DNA of 64,000 nt from Bacteroidales bacterium (GTDB taxonomy: Bacteria; Bacteroidota; Bacteroidia; Bacteroidales; UBA3663): positions 7,156 through 71,155 of the forward strand of contig JAEDEY010000001.1 of NCBI GenBank assembly GCA_016293065.1, read 5' to 3'. Positions within the stretch are counted from its first letter, which is position 1. Each line of letters begins with the position of its first letter. This document shows positions 4,270-52,845 of the stretch, one piece after another. Below the pieces are notes generated by a model that saw nothing but the letters and a program-made list of their open reading frames with translations, was not told the origin of the DNA and did not search any database. A program made the translations under genes and the position numbers.

Positions 4270-5454
4270 GTGGATACTTTTTTTAGGACTCATAAGTACT
4301 TGGTTGAACATGTTTACAGCCCCGTACGCCGAGAATTGATGGAAGAGATCAAATGGACAAGCCGTTTGATCGGAATCAAAGGTAGCCGAGGAGTCGGCAA
4401 GACCACGTTCCTTCTCCAATATGCATTGGAGAAGTATGGTCCGGACGATAGAAGATGTTTGTATATCAATATGAACCACTTCTACTTTTTCACTCACACA
4501 CTCCGCGAATTTGTGAGTGCGTTCCAGCAGCAGGGTGGCCGCACCTTGCTCATCGACGAGATATTCAAATATCCGGGCTGGAGCGAAGAGTTAAAGTTTA
4601 TTTACGACCAGTTCCCTCGCATTCAGATCATCTTTGCGGGCTCGACAGTTATGCGCCTCAAGGATGCTAATCCTGTGCTCAATGGCATTGTTGATTCTTA
4701 TAATCTCCGAGGTTTCTCTTTCCGCGAATACATCAACCTTGTGGCTGGCACTAACTTCCGACCTTATTCTTATCAGCAGATTATCACCAACCATCAGCAG
4801 ATAGCCTCTGATATTTGTCAGTCTATCAAACCTCTCAATTATTTCAAGGATTATATCCACCATGGTTTCTATCCGTTCTTCCTCGAAAAGAAGAACTATA
4901 GTGAGATGCTCATTAAGAACATGAATACTATGCTCGAGGTAGATATTCTCTTCCTCAAGGAGATTGAGCTCAGCTATCTGCCAAAGCTCAAGAAGCTGCT
5001 TCACATACTGGCGCAGGAAGCTCCTTGTTCGCCGAATGTCAGCCTTTTGGCAAAGAGCATTGAAACCAGCCGTGCCACGGTGGTCAACTATCTCAGCTAT
5101 CTCAAGGAGGCTCGTCTCATCAACATGCTTTATTCTGTCGATGAGCAGTTCCCAAAGAAGCCAGCTGTGGTATATATGCACAACACCAATATCTTGTATC
5201 CGACATGTCTCAACGAAGTGGAGCCACGCCAGTTGCGCGAGACTTTCTTCTACAACATGCTGCATAAAGATAACCGTTTGAACAAGTCGAACGAACGCAA
5301 CGTACAGTTCCTCATCAACCAGACCGACCGTTTCCGCGTCTGCGACTGGGTGGTTCGTACCAAGAACAATCCTGAGTATTATTATGCTATCGACAATCTT
5401 GAGATTGGTCACGACAACGTGATTCCTCTCTGGTTGTTCGGATTCCTATATTGA
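4270..5454 (+). CDS. AAA-family ATPase (COG1373-like, ATPase plus C-terminal DUF4143/wHTH-type region)
   Basis: Walker A 'GSRGVGKTTFLL' and Walker B-like 'TLLIDEIFKY'. 394 aa. GTG start per the ORF track. Confidence 0.65.
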   Translation: MDTFFRTHKYLVEHVYSPVRRELMEEIKWTSRLIGIKGSRGVGKTTFLLQYALEKYGPDDRRCLYINMNHFYFFTHTLREFVSAFQQQGGRTLLIDEIFKYPGWSEELKFIYDQFPRIQIIFAGSTVMRLKDANPVLNGIVDSYNLRGFSFREYINLVAGTNFRPYSYQQIITNHQQIASDICQSIKPLNYFKDYIHHGFYPFFLEKKNYSEMLIKNMNTMLEVDILFLKEIELSYLPKLKKLLHILAQEAPCSPNVSLLAKSIETSRATVVNYLSYLKEARLINMLYSVDEQFPKKPAVVYMHNTNILYPTCLNEVEPRQLRETFFYNMLHKDNRLNKSNERNVQFLINQTDRFRVCDWVVRTKNNPEYYYAIDNLEIGHDNVIPLWLFGFLY

Positions 5455-5506
5455 TACGATTTTAATCCTTTATAGTTTTAATTAATTCTTTTTATTCAAT
5501 TTCACA

Positions 5507-8500
5507 ATGGCAAAAAAATTCATGACATGTGATGGTAATACAGCTGCGGCACATATCGCGTATATGTTCTCGGAGGTAGCTGCTATCTACCCAATCACTC
5601 CATCATCTCCGATGGCTGAAAATGTCGACGAATGGGCTGCACAGGGCCGTAAGAACATCTTCGGTGAAACAGTCCTTGTTCAGGAAATGCAGTCTGAAGG
5701 TGGTGCTGCCGGTGCAGTTCACGGTTCACTTCAGGCAGGCGCACTCACTACTACATTTACCGCATCACAGGGCCTTCTCCTGATGATCCCTAATATGTAC
5801 AAGATTGCAGGTGAGCTCATCCCATCTGTGTTCCATGTTTCTGCTCGTACATTGGCTTCTCATGCTCTTTGTATCTTTGGTGACCACCAGGACGTAATGG
5901 CTTGCCGCCAGACTGGTTTCGCAATGCTCGCCGAGGGTTCTGTTCAGGAAGTAATGGATATCTCAGCTGTAGCACACCTCGCTACTCTCACCAGCCGTGT
6001 TCCATTCCTCAACTTCTTCGATGGTTTCCGTACTTCTCACGAGTATCAGAAGATTGAGGTTGTTGACCAGGAGGATCTCCGTCCACTCGTTGACTGGGAT
6101 GCTGTCAAGGCTTTTCGTGAGCGTGCTCTCTCTCCTGAGCATCCTGAGATGCGTGGTATGGCCGAGAACCCAGATGTGTTCTTCGCTCACCGCGAGTCTT
6201 CTAATCCTTACTACGATGCAGTGCCAGATATCGTAGCCAAGTACATGGATCAGGTTTCTGCCATCACTGGTCGCAAGCACCGTCCATTCGACTACTACGG
6301 AGCACCAGATGCCGAGAACATCATCGTCGCTATGGGTTCTGCTACCGAGTGTATCAAGGAGGTTATCGACTATAAGGTTGCACAGGGCGAGAAGGTAGGT
6401 TTGATCAGCGTTCACCTCTACCGTCCATTCTCTCTCAAGTACCTCAAGGAGGCTCTTCCTGCTTCTGTCAAGAAGGTTTGCGTCCTCGATCGTACAAAGG
6501 AGCCAGGTGCTAACTCTGAGCCTCTCTACCTCGACGTTGTTGACGCTCTCACCGAGCTTGGCCTCATCGGTCAGATTAAGGTTGTTGGCGGTCGTTATGG
6601 TCTTGGTTCTAACGATACTACTCCTGCTCAGATCATCGCTGTCTATGACAACCTCGCAATGGCAGAGCCTAAGAACCACTTCACTCTCGGTATCGTAGAT
6701 GATGTTACATTCACTTCTCTTCCAGTAGGTGAGGAGGTTTCTGTAGCTCCTGCAGGCACATTCCAGGCTAAGTTCTATGGTCTCGGTGCTGACGGTACAG
6801 TAGGTGCTAACAAGAACTCTGTAAAGATCATCGGTGAGACAACTGACAAGTATTGCCAGGCATATTTCTCTTACGACTCTAAGAAGTCTGGTGGTTTCAC
6901 TTGCTCTCACCTCCGTTTCGGCGATACTCCAATCCAGTCAACTTATCTCGTGACTACTCCTAACTTCGTTGCATGTCACCAGCAGGCTTACCTCAACATG
7001 TACGATGTGACTCGTGGTATCCAGAAGGGCGGTACATTCCTTCTCAATACTATCTGGGACGGTGAGGAACTTGTCAACAACATCCCTAACAAGGTGAAGG
7101 CAGTTCTCGCTAAGCAGGATGTCAAGGTTTACTACATCAATGCAACTAAGATTGCTCAGGAGATTGGTCTCGGCAACCGTACCAACACTATCCTCCAGTC
7201 GGCATTCTTCCGCATCACAGGTGTCATCCCTGTAGAGCAGGCAGTTGAAGAGATGAAGCACTTCATCGTCAAGTCTTATGGCAAGAAGGGTGAAGACGTT
7301 GTCAACAAGAACTATGCTGCTGTCGATCGTGGTGGCGAATACAAGGAGCTTGCTGTCGATCCAGTATGGGCTTCACTTGAGGCTGAGCCAAAGGTTTATA
7401 CCGATGGTGACGACTTCATCAACAAGGTAGTTCGCCCAATCAACGCACAGGATGGTGACCTTCTCCCAGTTTCTTCATTCAAGGGTATTGAGGATGGTAC
7501 TTGGGCTGCAGGTACAGCTAAGTTCGAGAAGCGTGGTGTAGGTGCCTTTGTTCCACAGTGGGATCCTGAGAAGTGTATCCAGTGTAACAAGTGTGCTTAT
7601 GTTTGTCCTCACGCTTGTATCCGTCCATTCGTAATGACAGCCGACGAGAAGGCAGGCTTTGCAGATGCTACTATCGAGATGAAGGCTCCAGCTGCAATGA
7701 AGGGTATGTTCTTCCGCATCCAGGTTGGTGTTAAGGATTGTCTCTCTTGCGGCAACTGTGCTGATGTCTGCCCAGGCAATCCAAAGCTCGGTGGTCCAGC
7801 TCTCAAGATGGTTCCTTACGACGATACTTCAGCTGAGGCTGCTCAGCAGGCTGCTAACTGGAAGTACTGCGTTGAGAACGTTACTTCTAAGCAGGATCTC
7901 GTTGACATCACAGCTAATGTCAAGAACTCTCAGTTCGCTCAGCCACTCTTCGAGTTCTCTGGTGCTTGCGCAGGTTGCGGTGAGACTCCTTACGTTAAGT
8001 TGATCTCTCAGCTCTTCGGCGACCGTGAGATCGTTGCCAACGCTACTGGTTGCTCTTCAATCTACTCTGGTTCTGTTCCTTCTACACCTTATACTAAGAA
8101 TGCTAAAGGTCAGGGTCCTGCTTGGGCTAACTCACTCTTCGAGGACTTCTGCGAATTCGGTCTCGGTATGGCTATTGCCAACAAGAAGATGAAGCAGCGT
8201 CTCACTCGTCTCATGACCGAGGCTCAGTCTTGCACTTGCTGCTCTGCTGAACTCAAGGCATTGATGCAGCAGTGGATCGAGAATCAGGAGGATGCTGCTC
8301 AGACCAAGGCTCTCGCTCCTCAGATTGTAGCTGCTTGTGAGGCTTGTGGTTGTGACACTTGCAAGGAGATTCTCACTTACAAGGATCACCTCGTTAAGCG
8401 CAGCCAGTGGATCATCGGTGGTGACGGTGCTTCTTACGACATCGGCTACGGAGGTCTCGACCATGTGATTGCTTCTGGCGAAGACGTTAACATCTTCGTA

Positions 8501-46803: not shown

Positions 46804-49347
46804 ATGAAAAGGATCACATTATTTTGCATGTCAGCACTTCTTCTAACGGCATGTAGTGAAACGTCACAGGTTGGCAATCCAGACCTGAAGATCAATGAAC
46901 TCGAATATTTTGAGGGCACTGGTGTCAATGTGCTTGTCTATAGCAACACCTTCAACGGAGGCTTCAACGACGAGAAGAATTCTGGCATCGAGATCATCCA
47001 CCATGGTGTACGCACAGTTCAGGGTGGTGCGGTGCGTCTGAACAAGACTCCTGAACAATGGGATCTTGTGCCTACCACTACATCGCGCACAGTCGATGCC
47101 GAGAACAGCAGCATCGAGGTGGCTCTCAACTACGCGGATTATGACTTCGATTCGCGCATTGTGGTGACAGGCAAGGGCAAGGCCGTTGAAATAGCGGTTT
47201 ATCTCGATGAGCCTTTGCCAGCTTTCCTTGAAGGTAAAGCAGGTTTCAACATAGAGTTCCTGCCTTCGCAGTATTGGCAGAAGACCTTCATCATGGATGG
47301 CAAGCTCGACCGTCTGCCTCGCTATACTTCCAGCGAGACGACTGCCGAACCAAACAGCGAGAAGCCAAAGCAGTTCAAGGGCTTTAAGACCTACGACGAC
47401 CGAGGCACTGGCAAGTTTGTCGATCCAAAGCCTCTCGCTACAGGCCATCACATCATACTTGCTTCCGACACTCCTGAACGCATGGTCACCGTCACTTCAG
47501 CCGATGCCGACCTCGAACTCTACGACGGACGTGTGCTTGCCCAGAACGGCTGGTACGTGCTTCGCAGCCCTCTTCCTGCTGGCAAGACTGGCAAGGTGCT
47601 CACATGGACAGTCGAGCCAAACGAGATTCCTAACTGGGTGCGTGAGCCAAACATTGGTTTCTCACAGGTGGGCTATATCCCTTCACAGCCAAAGATTGCC
47701 GTCATCGAGCTCGACAAGAACGACAAGGTTCAGTCGTCGGCTTCGCTCTACAGAATCAATCCTGATGGTTCGAGCACCAGGGCTTTCTCAGGAGCAACAA
47801 AGGAATGGGGTAGATATTATAAATACAATTATGCGCATTTCGACTTCTCGGCTGTCACTGAGCCTGGCATCTATTACATCCAGTATGGTGATACCAAGAC
47901 CAATAACTTCATCATCGACGAAAATGTCTATGACAAGATCACTGATGCCACGACCGACGTGTGGATTCCTATCCACATGAATCACATGGCAGTCAACGAA
48001 GGCTATCGTATGTGGCATGGCGAGCCTTTCAAGGAAGGTTATCTGCAAGCACCTCCCAGCGATCATTTCGACTTGCACTTTCAGGGTCCTGAGACAGAGA
48101 CTCGCTATAAGCCTTATGAACTGATTCCAGGACTTAATGTAGGTGGTTTCTTCGATGCGGGCGACTATGACATCGAGACCGATTCCAACATCGGAGTAGT
48201 GCAGAATCTCATCCGTGCATGGCGTCTCTTCCGTTCCGACCGCGACCAGACCTTCGTCAGCGAGGAACAGCGATATGTCGATCTGCATCGTCCTGACGGA
48301 ACACCCGACATCCTGCAGTTCATCGAACATGGTATGCTCAACCTTCTTGCTCAATCGGAGAAGATCGGTCACATGGCTTCGACATTGTCAAATGGTGTGC
48401 TCGACAACTATCATCATCTTGGCGACATCTCAGCCATCACCGATGGCTTGCACTACGACTCAAAGCTGAAGCCTTATACCAAGAGTGCCGATGGCAAGTC
48501 GAGTGGAGTGAACGATGATCTCTGGGCTTTCACTACCCGCAATCCTCGTCTCGACGCTCAGGCAGCAACGGTGTTTGCAGCTGCAAGCAAGGTGCTCGCA
48601 GACTATGACCCAGCTCTCGCCAAGCGTGCGTTGTCGGAGTCAAAGCGACTGATGAAAGAGAGTGAGGAACTGATGAAGAAAATGCCTACTCCTCCTATGA
48701 GCAACAGAGCATGGATGAGTATAGGTAATCTCGGCACAAACCTTGAGTTGTATGTGGCAACGGGCGAACAGTCTTATCTCGATGCGTTCAACGCACAGAT
48801 CTTCAAGGCTCTTGACCGCAATGTCTATTTCACTCTGCAGACAGCCCTCGATGCCGTGCCTTATCTTGGCGATGACTACAAGAACCAGCTTCGTCCGTAT
48901 GTCGAGCAATATAAGTCGTATATAGATAGTCTCGCATATCAGAATCCTTATGGCGTGCCTATTGGCCTCGGCAACTGGGCAGGAGGTGGACAGGTCACCA
49001 ACTTCGGCACTACCGTATGCTATGCACACCAGTATTTCCCCGACATTGTGCCAATGGATTGTGCCTACAAGACTGCTGCCTATATCTTTGGCTGTCACCC
49101 ATACCACAACTACTCGCTCGTAGCTGCAGTTGGTGCTGCTCGTCCGAAGGCTGTGTTCTATGGCAACAACCGTGCTGACTTCTCGTTCATTCCTGGTAAC
49201 ATGGCTCCTGGCATCCTCTTCCGTTATCCCGACCATTTCGAGAATTACGACGATTGGCCGTTCCTTTGGGGTCAGAACGAAGGCACCATAGCAGGCAATG
49301 TCGGTTATCTCATCTTTGGCTCGGCATTCAAGTCGATGGCTAAGTGA
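46804..49347 (+). CDS. Glycoside hydrolase family 9 lipoprotein (with N-terminal Ig-like domain)
   Basis: Lipoprotein signal 'MSALLLTACS'. GH9-type 'GGFFDAGDYDIETD' (DAGD motif) and the C-terminal catalytic region 'WGQNEGTIAGN'. 847 aa. Confidence 0.7.
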   Translation: MKRITLFCMSALLLTACSETSQVGNPDLKINELEYFEGTGVNVLVYSNTFNGGFNDEKNSGIEIIHHGVRTVQGGAVRLNKTPEQWDLVPTTTSRTVDAENSSIEVALNYADYDFDSRIVVTGKGKAVEIAVYLDEPLPAFLEGKAGFNIEFLPSQYWQKTFIMDGKLDRLPRYTSSETTAEPNSEKPKQFKGFKTYDDRGTGKFVDPKPLATGHHIILASDTPERMVTVTSADADLELYDGRVLAQNGWYVLRSPLPAGKTGKVLTWTVEPNEIPNWVREPNIGFSQVGYIPSQPKIAVIELDKNDKVQSSASLYRINPDGSSTRAFSGATKEWGRYYKYNYAHFDFSAVTEPGIYYIQYGDTKTNNFIIDENVYDKITDATTDVWIPIHMNHMAVNEGYRMWHGEPFKEGYLQAPPSDHFDLHFQGPETETRYKPYELIPGLNVGGFFDAGDYDIETDSNIGVVQNLIRAWRLFRSDRDQTFVSEEQRYVDLHRPDGTPDILQFIEHGMLNLLAQSEKIGHMASTLSNGVLDNYHHLGDISAITDGLHYDSKLKPYTKSADGKSSGVNDDLWAFTTRNPRLDAQAATVFAAASKVLADYDPALAKRALSESKRLMKESEELMKKMPTPPMSNRAWMSIGNLGTNLELYVATGEQSYLDAFNAQIFKALDRNVYFTLQTALDAVPYLGDDYKNQLRPYVEQYKSYIDSLAYQNPYGVPIGLGNWAGGGQVTNFGTTVCYAHQYFPDIVPMDCAYKTAAYIFGCHPYHNYSLVAAVGAARPKAVFYGNNRADFSFIPGNMAPGILFRYPDHFENYDDWPFLWGQNEGTIAGNVGYLIFGSAFKSMAK

Positions 49348-49387: not shown

Positions 49388-50341
49388 TTACACCTTCAAA
49401 GCTCTCAGGGCATTGCATACGGCGAGAATCATGATACCGGTGTCGGCAAACACTGCGAGCCACATGCTGGTGAAGCCGAATGCACTCAGAATGAGTACAA
49501 CGATCTTGACACCTATGGCAGCTATGATGTTCTGCCATACGATACTCATGCAACGCTGAGCAATTTTCTTAGCAATATCAAGTCGAGAAGGGTCATCGTC
49601 AGCAAAAGCTATCTCATCGCTTGGGATAGAGCCTCGGCTGAGCTGTTCGAGACCGCAACCATCGGTAATGAGAATGCCGTGCGAGCTGGCATTGATGATA
49701 GAGGCAAAGAAAGTCATAGGGATACTGATGACCAGTGCACAAGGACAACTGATGACGAGGAAGGTGAGTGCGCGATAGAGCCAGGTGTTCCATTCTGCCT
49801 CACAACCTAAAGCCATGTTGATCATGGGAACTCCAATTAACAGCAACAAGGAACCAAGACAGACAAAAGGTGTATAGACCTTGGCAAAACGGGTGATAAA
49901 TGCCTCGGAACGTGATGACTGACGCGAGCCCTCGTGTTTCGCTATGCCGAGTTCTCTGATTTTCTTCATGCTCTTGATGCTTGCATAGCCTTGGAAATAC
50001 TCACCAATGCGGAAGAAAAGAATTACCGAGATGGCCTCTCCATAGTCGCCTGATCCCTCGATAATGGCAAGCGCAAAGACACCTAATGTGGCCACTGCCA
50101 TAAGAAAATACTCGTCGAACCATTGGCCGTGGACAATGCCCCTGATGGCTTTCCATAGCACATCGATGCCTACAAAGAGATAGACTGCGACATAGACCAA
50201 AAGCTTTGACGACGCGGAGTCAATGTGGTCTGACAGTAGATTGGCCGCAAGGTATAGCACTGAAGCAACTACGATACGGACGAGGTCACCATGCGAAGCC
50301 GCATGATGGTGATGATGGTGGTTATGTTGATTGTCGGACAT
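49388..50341 (-). CDS. P1B-type heavy-metal ATPase homologue reduced to its membrane domain (no actuator, phosphorylation or nucleotide-binding domains)
   Basis: 317 aa from 'MSDNQHNHHHHHHAASHG'. It keeps 'FITRFAKVYTP', 'FLVISCPCALVISIP...GILITDGCGLEQL' and C-terminal 'MWLAVFADTGIMILAVCNALRAL', all close to ZntA/CadA-type pumps. No TGES, DKTGT or GDGxND motifs are present. Confidence 0.75.
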   Translation of the reverse strand: MSDNQHNHHHHHHAASHGDLVRIVVASVLYLAANLLSDHIDSASSKLLVYVAVYLFVGIDVLWKAIRGIVHGQWFDEYFLMAVATLGVFALAIIEGSGDYGEAISVILFFRIGEYFQGYASIKSMKKIRELGIAKHEGSRQSSRSEAFITRFAKVYTPFVCLGSLLLLIGVPMINMALGCEAEWNTWLYRALTFLVISCPCALVISIPMTFFASIINASSHGILITDGCGLEQLSRGSIPSDEIAFADDDPSRLDIAKKIAQRCMSIVWQNIIAAIGVKIVVLILSAFGFTSMWLAVFADTGIMILAVCNALRALKV

Positions 50342-50370
50342 TTTTTTATAATTTACCCAATTTGGAGTGG

Positions 50371-50378
50371 CAAAGATA
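50371..50378 (-). promoter_or_regulatory. -7 box TATCTTTG (minus strand) upstream of the truncated P1B homologue
   Basis: The plus strand reads CAAAGATA, 30 nt upstream of ATG 50341. Confidence 0.55.
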
Positions 50379-50430
50379 GAAAAAAAACAACAAATAGCGA
50401 AATTTATTAGGTAAATATGAATAAATATCA

Positions 50431-50438
50431 TAACTTTG
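50431..50438 (+). promoter_or_regulatory. -7 box TAACTTTG upstream of the CotH-family gene
   Basis: TAnnTTTG match 26 nt upstream of ATG 50464. Confidence 0.5.
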
Positions 50439-50463
50439 TACAAAAATTATTACCTATTTCATC

Positions 50464-52845
50464 ATGAAAAGAATATTTACCTTTTTGATGGCACTATCTC
50501 TGTGGGTCATCCCTAGTGAAGCGCAAGTGGTGATTAATGAGTTCATGCAATCAAATATCGATTGTGTAATGGACGATTTGAACGACTTTCCAGACTCGTG
50601 GGTGGAGTTGTACAATGCTGGTTCTGCTCCTGTCGATATGTCGGAATTCAGCATCGGTACATCGAGAAAAGCGAACAAGGCCTACAAGTTGCCGAAGCAG
50701 ACTCTCAATGCCAATGATTATGTACTGGTGTATTGTGACAAAGAAGAGAAGTCTTGGCATACATCTTTTAGACTTGAGTCGGGCAAGGGCTGCACCATCT
50801 ATCTGTTCCATGGTAGTGAGATTGAAGACTCTATACCATCGGGACTAAAAAAACAACCTGCTCCAAACATCGCATATGGACGCAAGACTGACGCTTCGGA
50901 CAAATGGGGATATATGGCAGTTCCAACACCAAAGGCCGCCAACTGCGGCACTATTTACAGTAAGATATTAGACAACCCTATGTTCAGCATTCCAGGCATG
51001 GTATATGCTGACAAGGCTAAACCTCTGACATTGGAAATCTCACTACCAGAAGGCTCTCCCGAAGGAACCGTGATACGATATACGACCGATGGAAAAGAAC
51101 CTACCGAGACAAGCAAGAGATATACGGCCCCTATCTCTTTTTCAACTACGACAGTGGTCAGAGCAAAGCTCTTCTGCGACGGATACATGTCGCCACGATC
51201 GACCACACATTCCTACATCATGTTAGGCAGAAAGGCCGACCTAGCTGTCGTATCGGTAGTGTCGGATGCCAAATATTTTACCGATAGCAAGATTGGCATC
51301 TTTTCTGATTCAAAGTCTTTTGATGGCACAGAAAACTACAAACACAACTGGCGTCGTCCGATCAACTATGAGTTGTTTGAGACCAATGGTGAAGAAAGCA
51401 AGCTGAATCAGCTGTGCGAGGCACGTGTCACTGGAGGCGCTTCTCGCGGTTGTGCACTAAAGTCGATGGGGCTCTATGCCAACAAGCGTTTCGGCGAGAA
51501 GCGTTTCAACTATGAGTTCTTTCCCGACCAGCGTCAAGGGATCACTGATTTCAAGTCGGTAATGATGCGCAACGCTGGCAACGACTTCGATTATCTCTAT
51601 ATGCGTGATGCGGTGATACAGCGTATCATGTCAGAGAATGTCGATATAGACTGGCAGGCATGGCGACCAGCCATTTTCTTCCTCAATGGACAATACAAGG
51701 GCATACTCAACATACGTGAACGTAGTAACGAAGACAATATATACACCAACTACGACGGACTCGAAGATATTGACATGGTTGAGAACTGGTATGAGCTGAA
51801 GGAAGGTGACTATGATGAGTGGAAGGCTTTCATGGATTTCTATCAGGCTCATGGTCACAGCTATGAGGAATATGACAAGATAATGGACGTAAGTGAGTTT
51901 ATGAATGTCATGATACTCAATCTCTTCTTCTGCAATCTCGATTTCCCTGGCAACAATATAGTGTGGTGGAAGCCGCAGGCAGAGGGCGGTCGATGGCGTG
52001 TCATTGTCAAGGATACCGACTTCGGATTGGGTCTCTATGGACGCAGTGTGAGCTACAATACCATCAAGTGGCTGTATGACCCTAACTATGACAAAGACAA
52101 TGCCTGGGCCAACAGGTATGAGCACACGCGCCTGTTCCGCCGACTGATGGAGGATGAGCGCTTCAGTCGTGAGTTCATCGACCGCTGTGCGATATATATG
52201 GGCGACTTCATGAACCTCGACCGCACATGGGAGATATGGGAGCCGATGTATAACCTCATTCGCAACGAGTATCCTATTCACCGCAAACTCTACAACGAGT
52301 GGTGGCCAAACTACAACACCGAATTGTCGAATGCAAAAACCTGGCTCAAGAACCGTCCGGCAATATTCTACAAGCATATCAGTGATTACTATAAAGTCGG
52401 GACTCCAGTTAATTTGGCGATTAACCAGTCGCTGTCATCGGCTGATCTCAGCCGTATTGAAGTGTCGTTCAATGGTGTCAAGCTTACCCGTTCAAAATTC
52501 GACGGCAAGTTCTTTGCAGGTCGTTCGGTTGTGCTGACCGGCGAGAATGTCGTTGGTTGGAGAGTCTGCGAGACTACATCGTCGGGCGAACTGAAGACAA
52601 GAGATGTCGAGGGCTCGACTCTCACATTGACTATGCCAAATGCCACCAGTGTAGCAATCACGGCAAAGGTGGGCGATGCGGATGGCATAGGGCAGATTAC
52701 CGGTGCTGATACAGAATCGGCAATAGTAGATATCTATGACCCAGCGGGAATGAAGCGCGAAGCAGTAGGACAAGGCTACAACATAGTTCGCACAGAAGAT
52801 GGCAAGGCTAAGAAGATATGGCAATCAACGGTTAGTGCGGAATAA
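50464..52845 (+). CDS. Secreted CotH-family (atypical kinase fold) protein with N-terminal lamin-tail domain
   Basis: Signal peptide. LTD-like 'VVINEFMQSN...DSWVELYNAGSAPVDMSEFSI'. Chitobiase/FN3-associated-like 'IRYTTDGKEPTETSKRYTAPI'. CotH core 'MMRNAGNDFDYLYMRDAV...LNGQYKGILNIRE'. Confidence 0.7.
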   Translation: MKRIFTFLMALSLWVIPSEAQVVINEFMQSNIDCVMDDLNDFPDSWVELYNAGSAPVDMSEFSIGTSRKANKAYKLPKQTLNANDYVLVYCDKEEKSWHTSFRLESGKGCTIYLFHGSEIEDSIPSGLKKQPAPNIAYGRKTDASDKWGYMAVPTPKAANCGTIYSKILDNPMFSIPGMVYADKAKPLTLEISLPEGSPEGTVIRYTTDGKEPTETSKRYTAPISFSTTTVVRAKLFCDGYMSPRSTTHSYIMLGRKADLAVVSVVSDAKYFTDSKIGIFSDSKSFDGTENYKHNWRRPINYELFETNGEESKLNQLCEARVTGGASRGCALKSMGLYANKRFGEKRFNYEFFPDQRQGITDFKSVMMRNAGNDFDYLYMRDAVIQRIMSENVDIDWQAWRPAIFFLNGQYKGILNIRERSNEDNIYTNYDGLEDIDMVENWYELKEGDYDEWKAFMDFYQAHGHSYEEYDKIMDVSEFMNVMILNLFFCNLDFPGNNIVWWKPQAEGGRWRVIVKDTDFGLGLYGRSVSYNTIKWLYDPNYDKDNAWANRYEHTRLFRRLMEDERFSREFIDRCAIYMGDFMNLDRTWEIWEPMYNLIRNEYPIHRKLYNEWWPNYNTELSNAKTWLKNRPAIFYKHISDYYKVGTPVNLAINQSLSSADLSRIEVSFNGVKLTRSKFDGKFFAGRSVVLTGENVVGWRVCETTSSGELKTRDVEGSTLTLTMPNATSVAITAKVGDADGIGQITGADTESAIVDIYDPAGMKREAVGQGYNIVRTEDGKAKKIWQSTVSAE

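Follow-up and report, generated by a model that had tools for sequence, protein, structure and literature searches.

A conserved membrane-only derivative of Zn/Cd-type P-type ATPases in Bacteroidales, with a possible role in ATP-independent metal transport

The 64,000-nucleotide stretch of a Bacteroidales genome analysed here (contig JAEDEY010000001.1; hereafter the window) carries on its minus strand, at 49388..50341 with the stop codon included, a complete gene (open reading frame [ORF] list and translation) for a domain-less homologue, 317 amino acids (aa) long, of the P1B-2 pumps. This protein is derived from a Zn/Cd-type (P1B-2) P-type ATPase and has lost, in frame, both the actuator (A) domain and the phosphorylation and nucleotide-binding (P/N) domains, while its eight-helix membrane domain retains the complete P1B-2 ion pathway. 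It is almost certainly a functional protein maintained by selection. We propose tentatively, with somewhat more doubt than confidence, that the membrane domain of a P-type ATPase here works alone, and that such proteins form an unrecognised class of ATP-independent heavy-metal transporters made repeatedly by gut anaerobes (Bacteroidales and Clostridia). What defines a P-type ATPase is that a phosphorylation motor is tightly coupled to an ion pathway through the membrane; in the literature covered we met no natural protein that had kept the latter and shed the former entirely. The database name for the short proteins is 'hypothetical protein', and we found no annotation or literature description of a membrane-only P1B class in a full-text search, in which few subscription journals are covered, or in a recent review of open questions. 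An earlier reading made from the letters of this DNA (the sequence-only reading), which had proposed such a protein, likewise knew of no characterised member.

The best match in the PDB is Shigella ZntA (4umv, 732 aa; phmmer, E 6e-31), which aligns in three collinear blocks: residues 48-139, 138-237 and 260-316 of the query correspond to ZntA 154-239, 336-430 and 674-730, respectively. The stretches ZntA ~240-335 (A domain) and ~431-660 (P/N domains) are therefore without counterpart. Of E1-E2_ATPase, Pfam recognizes the C-terminal third and no more (aa 138-219, profile positions 104-179 of 181, E 4e-11), and the Hydrolase domain (PF00702) was not found in the 317-aa protein. The NCBIfam models of ZntA/CadA type match in three separate stretches and far under their cut-offs: TIGR01494 (P-type ATPase superfamily, HAD-IC) scores 22.3 against 62.3, TIGR01525 115.7 against 346, TIGR01512 118 against 313.5 and NF008262 144.5 against 1005. 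Alignment with full-length pumps shows where the losses lie. The actuator domain with its TGE(S) loop is absent, and a 13-residue linker, LGIAKHEGSRQSS (aa 131-143; 49913..49951, minus strand), replaces the ~100 residues between M2 and M3. DKTGT is absent as well, the sequence passing from 'LEQLSRG' straight to 'IPSDEIAFADDDP', and so are the nucleotide-binding domain and the GDGxNDxP hinge motif. Both junctions, at aa 131-143 (nt 49913-49951) and aa ~236-243 (nt ~49613-49636), are in frame and lie where the sequence-only reading had expected them, around nt 49919-49957 for the A domain and nt 49604-49648 for the P/N domains. The P/N domain of the full-length pump P0124, used as a tblastn query, had no match within the window. 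Lacking DKTGT, TGE, the N domain and GDGxNDxP, the 317-aa protein cannot be a P-type ATPase. Judged by its motifs it is incapable of phosphorylation or of ATP hydrolysis, and the label P-type ATPase should not be applied to it, since every catalytic feature by which membership is recognised is missing despite the homology.

The membrane domain is laid out as in the pumps, and all the peptides first quoted for it are found in the translation (HNHHHHHH, ILFFRIGEYFQGYA, FITRFAKVYTP, FLVISCPCALVISIP, GILITDGCGLEQL and the C-terminal helices). Helices MA, MB, M1 and M2 occupy aa 17-130 (49952..50293, minus strand; model helices 17-36, 43-70, 77-95 and 101-130) and are followed by the linker, which has the lowest predicted local distance difference test (pLDDT) values of the protein body (62-74) and is its least conserved segment, with 54% identity to a group of orthologues (L001, L014-16) that we call the 75% group. 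M3 and M4, aa 144-220 (49682..49912, minus strand; model helices 144-177, 184-197 and 201-220), include FITRFAKVYTP and the metal-binding helix, which is interrupted at the CPC motif. This motif, C199-P200-C201 (49739..49747, minus strand), equals C392-P-C394 of ZntA and lies within CPC(x)4SxP. A cytoplasmic stub of 31 residues, HGILITDGCGLEQLSRGSIPSDEIAFADDDP (aa 221-251; 49589..49681, minus strand), joins M4 to M5. It is what is left of the first and the last P-domain strand; the segment running from DKTGT to GDGxNDxP has been deleted between about aa 236 and 243. The model gives the stub strands at 223-225 and 244-246 and a helix at 228-235, and its identity to the 75% group is 74%. M5 and M6, aa 252-317 (49391..49588, minus strand; model helices 252-287 and 293-315), correspond to the third block of the ZntA alignment, M5 carrying N271(x)7K279 and M6 carrying D300-x-G302.

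The AlphaFold2 model of the protein (pLDDT 88.3, predicted TM-score 0.82) has eight long transmembrane helices, with M4 broken at residues 198-200, the CPC motif. Its best Foldseek matches in the PDB are ZntA structures 4umw (E 2e-8, TM-score 0.65 on the query) and 4umv (E 1.5e-5, 0.63), followed by a Cd pump and then by CopA. In the phmmer alignment M81, E102, F110 and E114 fall on ZntA M187, E202, F210 and E214, while C199/C201, K279 and D300 fall on C392/C394, K693 and D714. In ZntA, E202 is the exit-pathway Glu, M187 and F210 are capping residues, E214 is the entry-funnel Glu, C392, C394 and D714 form the high-affinity Zn site, and K693 is the built-in counter-ion (PMC6305203, PMC10246665). 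The signatures by which P1B-2 is defined, CPC(x)4SxP in M4, N(x)7K in M5 and DxG in M6 (PMC6305203), are all present (C199-P-C201...S206-x-P208, N271...K279 and D300-x-G302). Across 60 aligned short and full-length sequences E102, Y156-T157-P158, C199-P200-C201, S206, P208, N271, K279, D300 and G302 are invariant, the CPC motif being found in 60/60 of these sequences and in 14/14 short lineages. The collinearity with ZntA/CadA-type pumps that the sequence-only reading had described is thus real by sequence, by signature motifs and by fold.

A protein search over 5.8 billion proteins returned the best 120 matches, all of 322-355 aa with no Pfam domain on record and, where named, called 'hypothetical protein [Bacteroidales bacterium]'. 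Since most of them are ~98% mutually identical they represent one abundant species and not 120 lineages. Orthologues with the same architecture (315-340 aa), which the sequence-only reading had predicted for other Bacteroidales, are nevertheless common, occurring in at least eight Bacteroidales lineages at 56-95% identity. The window protein is 85% identical to P0002, 64% to P0444 of locus L030, 56% to the protein of L002 and 54% to P0121; L002 has relatives of its own at 95% (P0438), 72-74% (P0439-41), 56% (P0445) and 57% (P0446) identity. The 90% cluster to which the window protein belongs has 54 members; all 15 of those listed are intact, with 317 or 347 aa, and single variants were found on up to 191 contigs, the group as a whole being present intact on hundreds. 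Pairwise ratios of nonsynonymous to synonymous substitution (dN/dS, Nei-Gojobori) are 0.051 for L002 against L026 (95% aa identity, dS 0.45), 0.081 for the window against L017 (84%, dS 1.27) and 0.137 for L001 against L014 (99%, dS 0.037). The short gene is under strongly purifying selection. With orthologues of the same architecture, dN/dS of 0.05-0.14 (far under 1) and genuine similarity to the P1B helices, the description of the product as a selected 'membrane-domain-only' protein proves right, and the case made at the outset against a decaying pseudogene is strengthened by the breadth of the orthologues, in all of which the frame is intact.

Short forms are not limited to the Bacteroidales. 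When 1.84 billion cluster representatives were scanned exhaustively with HMMER, about ten further short representatives of 50%-identity clusters emerged (290-345 aa, 36-54% identity), one of them from an Oscillospiraceae metagenome-assembled genome; domain-less forms also occur in Clostridia-type lineages, where they group with different full-length pumps. A profile built from the short forms outside the Bacteroidales matched full-length Clostridia pumps almost exclusively, and the short set did not grow. The same HMMER scan revealed three to four intermediate forms of 387-410 aa without A and N domains, namely P0204/P0289 (409-410 aa; L022 7001..8233), P0140 (387 aa) and P0123 (390 aa). Their membrane motifs are unchanged, and they retain a P-domain remnant of 60-100 residues with destroyed motifs; in P0204, DKTGT has become SENGK and GDGINDAP has become GGKAEEGD. 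The P0289 cluster has 17 members on contigs of up to 139 kb, so that the intermediate forms, too, are maintained.

A single origin of all the short forms was considered and rejected. In a bootstrapped neighbour-joining (NJ) analysis (258 shared columns, 75 sequences, 300 replicates) they were monophyletic in 0/300 trees. The short P0135 groups with the full-length P0296 (91% bootstrap), P0140/P0204/P0289 with the full-length P0137 (100%) and P0128 with P0132, a protein of 569 aa (76%), and the Bacteroidales proteins (window protein, P0002, P0003 and L002) form a group of their own (100%); a plain NJ tree without bootstrap left the groupings unresolved. The boundaries of the deletions differ as well: compared with the window protein, P0135 retains a P-domain piece longer by ~15 residues and, in addition, ~8 residues of the A domain's first strand. 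At L023/L024 the closest full-length relative of the short gene is a pump encoded two genes upstream of it, with 82% identity between the two proteins in the first 137 aa and 67% in the last 89. These observations suggest at least three independent losses of the catalytic domains, a count taken from NJ bootstraps, which on sequences so divergent are not decisive, and from one syntenic case, in which gene conversion with the adjacent pump could inflate the similarity at L023.

Which parts of the membrane domain have remained under constraint was read from 59 columns conserved at ≥90% in 147 non-redundant full-length pumps and compared in 14 short lineages; each cell is one short lineage at one column, and as the cells are not mutually independent a Fisher p-value is purely descriptive. 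In the 49 intramembrane columns the pump residue is retained in 92% of cells, whereas in the ten columns of the cytoplasmic linker and stub it is retained in only 40%. The pump residue is lost in 12/14 short lineages at K142, in 10/14 at K226 (in the 'LIKGG' strand that leads to DKTGT in the pumps) and in 8/14 at G227, and the strand that closed the P domain is likewise relaxed at D243, V245 and D249. E102, E114 and K279 are retained in 13-14 of the 14. Because the membrane columns are kept and the coupling columns relaxed, selection continues to act on entry, binding, counter-ion and exit, and not on contacts with the motor. This pattern is our main argument that metal binding, and probably also passage, is the function kept by selection.

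The distant members keep traces of pump operons. At L018 a gene of the ArsR/SmtB family (above its NCBIfam cut-off) ends 8 nt upstream of the short gene, with a CDF gene alongside; the C-terminus of the ArsR/SmtB protein, DDHIETIMKTAAEHIRE, fits what we take to be the zinc-site motif DxHx10Hx2E. At L025 a 72-aa HMA protein, closest to the N-terminal domain of ZntA, is encoded upstream and overlaps the start of the short gene by one base (translational coupling). Together with the parental pump at L023/L024, these are the metal-related contexts that support transport.

We would picture the function as follows. The Cys2/Asp site would bind a divalent transition metal (Zn2+, possibly Cd2+/Co2+), and the metal would cross the membrane through the old pump pathway without ATP. 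Thermal motion would carry the membrane domain from its inward-facing to its outward-facing state and back, making it a facilitator or uniporter, and the His tail would accept metal or pass it on at the cytoplasmic face. Pumps of the ZntA type carry out electrogenic uniport, with no counter-transport of protons (PMC10246665), and the freed membrane domain would therefore most simply be a facilitated uniporter. Given an inside-negative potential and a buffered cytoplasm, plain uniport would lead to uptake, while export would require coupling to protons. That the short protein carries out some ATP-independent translocation of a metal of the Zn/Cd/Co type is, to our mind, nearly as easily believed as doubted. 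Uniport with uptake, taken by itself, would be rather unlikely, and proton-coupled export distinctly more so.

Several observations weigh against an autonomous transporter. The Cys2/Asp high-affinity site may be too slow at releasing metal without the E2P power stroke, and the AlphaFold2 model is silent on gating. The Bacteroidales members, the window gene included, have no metal-related neighbours, the genes around them being of the GH9, CotH, GH92, ABC-F and GH2 families. The sole regulatory clue, the ArsR/SmtB-type operon of L018, is of a kind typical of induction by metal excess, which would fit an exporter or a sink and not a potential-driven importer; this arrangement may, on the other hand, merely have been inherited from a parental cadC-cadA-like operon.

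A first rival reading is a role other than transport, in which the protein would bind metal at the conserved site and serve as a sensor, as a membrane-bound metal buffer or chaperone, or as regulatory partner to a full-length P1B pump or some other transporter, with no net translocation. We consider this possible, if on the unlikely side. A high-affinity site may not turn over at all without the ATP-driven cycle, and the His-rich tails and loops are suited to binding or sensing. In L023/L024 the short gene stands two genes from its closest full-length pump, and in L018 it stands beside the CDF gene under an ArsR/SmtB-type regulator. Most loci, however, have no pump or transporter as neighbour, and the short protein has no output domain. 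The retention of E114 (entry), E102 (exit) and K279 in nearly every lineage also speaks against this role, as these residues are not obviously needed for binding or docking.

A split pump, to which separate soluble proteins would supply the A and P/N domains in trans so that ATP-driven export is retained, seems very improbable. It has no direct support beyond the separate, coupled HMA gene of L025, an indication that some splitting of pump modules does occur. When the A and P/N domains of P0124 were searched by tblastn against 31 sequences (368 kb), they were met only inside full-length pumps; the sole match next to a short gene is the complete pump of L023/L024, and the window contains none. 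P-type ATPase domains act through covalent linkers to M2, M3, M4 and M5, and the residues that contacted the lost domains (K142, K226, G227, D243 and D249) are relaxed in the short forms. A decaying pseudogene or strain-specific lesion of a ZntA/CadA gene would ordinarily be the first thought for a pump gene with two large deletions, and variants P0258 and P0265 (see below) might seem to exemplify it, but here it is scarcely credible and is ruled out by the breadth of the orthologues (an intact ORF of the same length in many lineages) and their dN/dS, to which the invariant membrane motifs, the conserved promoter box and the full length of the 15/15 listed cluster members add. The remaining probability goes to something else.

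Returning to autonomous transport, comparison with known systems places the short protein as follows. With the P1B-2 pumps ZntA/CadA (4UMV/4UMW) it shares the eight-helix membrane domain (MA, MB, M1-M6), the three signatures and the pathway residues; unlike them it has no actuator, P core, N domain or phosphoenzyme, and measures 317 aa against 620-730 aa. Full-length His-tailed Cd/Zn pumps of Bacteroidales and Clostridia are likely to be the parental type. Those of L003 (ORF of 653 aa) and P0124 (658 aa) are 51-55% identical to it over the shared helices, and the L003 pump has, as the short protein does, a His-rich N-terminus in place of an HMA domain, but both keep all catalytic domains and motifs. 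The intermediates P0204/P0289, P0140 and P0123 share the loss of A and N domains and differ by their P-domain remnant, P0140/P0204/P0289 grouping with pump P0137. Among other transporters, the arsenite carrier ArsB works alone as a secondary carrier or together with the ATPase ArsA as a pump, and so sets a precedent for the membrane unit of an ATP-driven metal(loid) exporter acting without its ATPase; its fold is unrelated, and ArsA is a separate subunit, not a set of excised domains. The ZIP (ZupT) and CDF (ZitB/CzcD) proteins are ATP-independent divalent-metal transporters with His-rich cytoplasmic segments, and occupy a functional niche that the short protein might share, with no kinship of sequence or fold. 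In palytoxin-opened Na,K-ATPase a P-type membrane domain conducts ions passively once gating is uncoupled from the catalytic cycle; there, unlike here, the pump is a complete one of the P2 type, and a toxin brings the state about.

If autonomous transport is true, these proteins would be a new transporter class; were they only sensors or partner subunits, they would still be a new accessory component of metal homeostasis. A motor-less form that is conserved and has evolved repeatedly offers a natural minimal system for studying binding, gating, leak and direction in a P-type membrane domain. It bears on how energy is coupled to transport in the pumps, and on the old idea that these arose from a membrane transporter fused to a HAD-type phosphatase. 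It may also reveal unannotated handling of zinc, cadmium or cobalt in abundant gut Bacteroidales, where competition with the host for metals matters. Finally, it corrects the annotation of genes now called 'hypothetical protein' or at risk of being dismissed as broken pumps.

The gene itself runs on the minus strand from an ATG at 50341 to a TAA at 49388-49390. Versions of the ORF with 347-351 aa are frequent in the output of gene callers. The additional stretch covers the promoter region, and between the window and L017 it differs mostly by radical amino-acid replacements; on both counts the true start is likely to be the ATG at 50341. A candidate Bacteroidetes -7 promoter box, TATCTTTG (coding-strand sequence; 50371..50378, minus strand), lies 30 nt upstream of this ATG and fits TAnnTTTG, which we take to be the consensus. 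Its retention had been claimed at the outset and is borne out by the preservation of 'TATCTTTGCC' at this position upstream of the orthologues in L017 and L002/L026. The intergenic region (50342..50463, 122 nt), common to the short gene and to a divergent CotH-family gene, is 83% identical to that of L017, while synonymous sites of the coding sequence differ at a proportion (pS) of 0.61. A second TAnnTTTG box, TAACTTTG (50431..50438, plus strand), is oriented towards the CotH gene, opposite to TATCTTTG. A scan for sigma-70 promoters, which does not cover those of Bacteroidetes, gave 0 matches, and no convincing operator or Zur box emerged when inverted repeats were sought ahead of ten short genes.

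The N-terminal His run HNHHHHHH (aa 6-13; 50303..50326, minus strand) is predicted to be cytoplasmic and disordered (pLDDT <50 for residues 1-11). His-rich N-termini are shared by the orthologues of L001, L002 and L030 and by the full-length Bacteroidaceae pump of L003. Several relatives have His-rich inserts in their cytoplasmic linkers. Two short forms, P0127 and P0139, carry a long His-rich or His/Cys-rich insert exactly at the former A-domain site, and a third, P0166, has one in the M1-M2 loop, where it is expected to face outwards.

Two other variants are probably true wreckage or assembly errors. P0258 (221 aa) has an HMA-like N-terminus fused directly to M3-M6 and, of the P/N domains, keeps VFDKTGTLT and hardly anything more; P0265 (380 aa) is a pump whose frame becomes low-complexity sequence after M4 (a frameshifted tail).

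In the window the short gene stands alone, with a convergent GH9-family gene (46804..49347, plus strand) on one side and no full-length paralogue within the 64 kb. The divergent CotH-family gene (50464..52845, plus strand) encodes a protein of ~780-790 aa with LTD, CHB_HEX_C_1, Fn3_assoc and CotH domains and recurs at L017 (1..1326, minus strand) and L030 (1309..3648, minus strand), three lineages whose short proteins are 64-85% identical; this may reflect ancestral synteny or a functional link. A conserved partner gene was otherwise looked for and rejected, as neighbourhoods vary between lineages and the CotH gene is the sole recurring neighbour. In the 75% group a 631-aa gene without Pfam match (L014 6065..7960, plus strand; also L001, L015 and L016) lies on the same strand and ends 40 nt upstream of the short gene; it was not found in the window or at the other loci. 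The CDF (Cation_efflux) gene of L018 (6894..7496, minus strand) encodes only 200 aa, covering profile positions 4-199 of 285. Its product would thus be without the usual C-terminal cytoplasmic domain, and may be a second trimmed metal transporter at that locus.

Near three Clostridia-type short genes lie MtaB, B12-binding and CobW-like GTPase genes (L020 293..3683), URO-D, pterin-binding and B12-binding genes (L025 1..2787) and a gene for a CbiK-domain protein behind a cobalamin riboswitch (L023 8189..11815). A link to cobalt or corrinoids, considered on these grounds, is weakened by the position of the L023 riboswitch, which follows the short gene and stands at the head of the next operon; the association may therefore be due to chance. 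A riboswitch search found none preceding any short gene, the FMN (L030) and lysine (L025) riboswitches belonging to other genes. That of L030 (4815..4929, plus strand; 108 bits) comes immediately after the short gene and ahead of a TonB-dependent receptor gene (5071..7377, plus strand), an arrangement which suggests that the latter encodes a riboflavin-regulated outer-membrane receptor.

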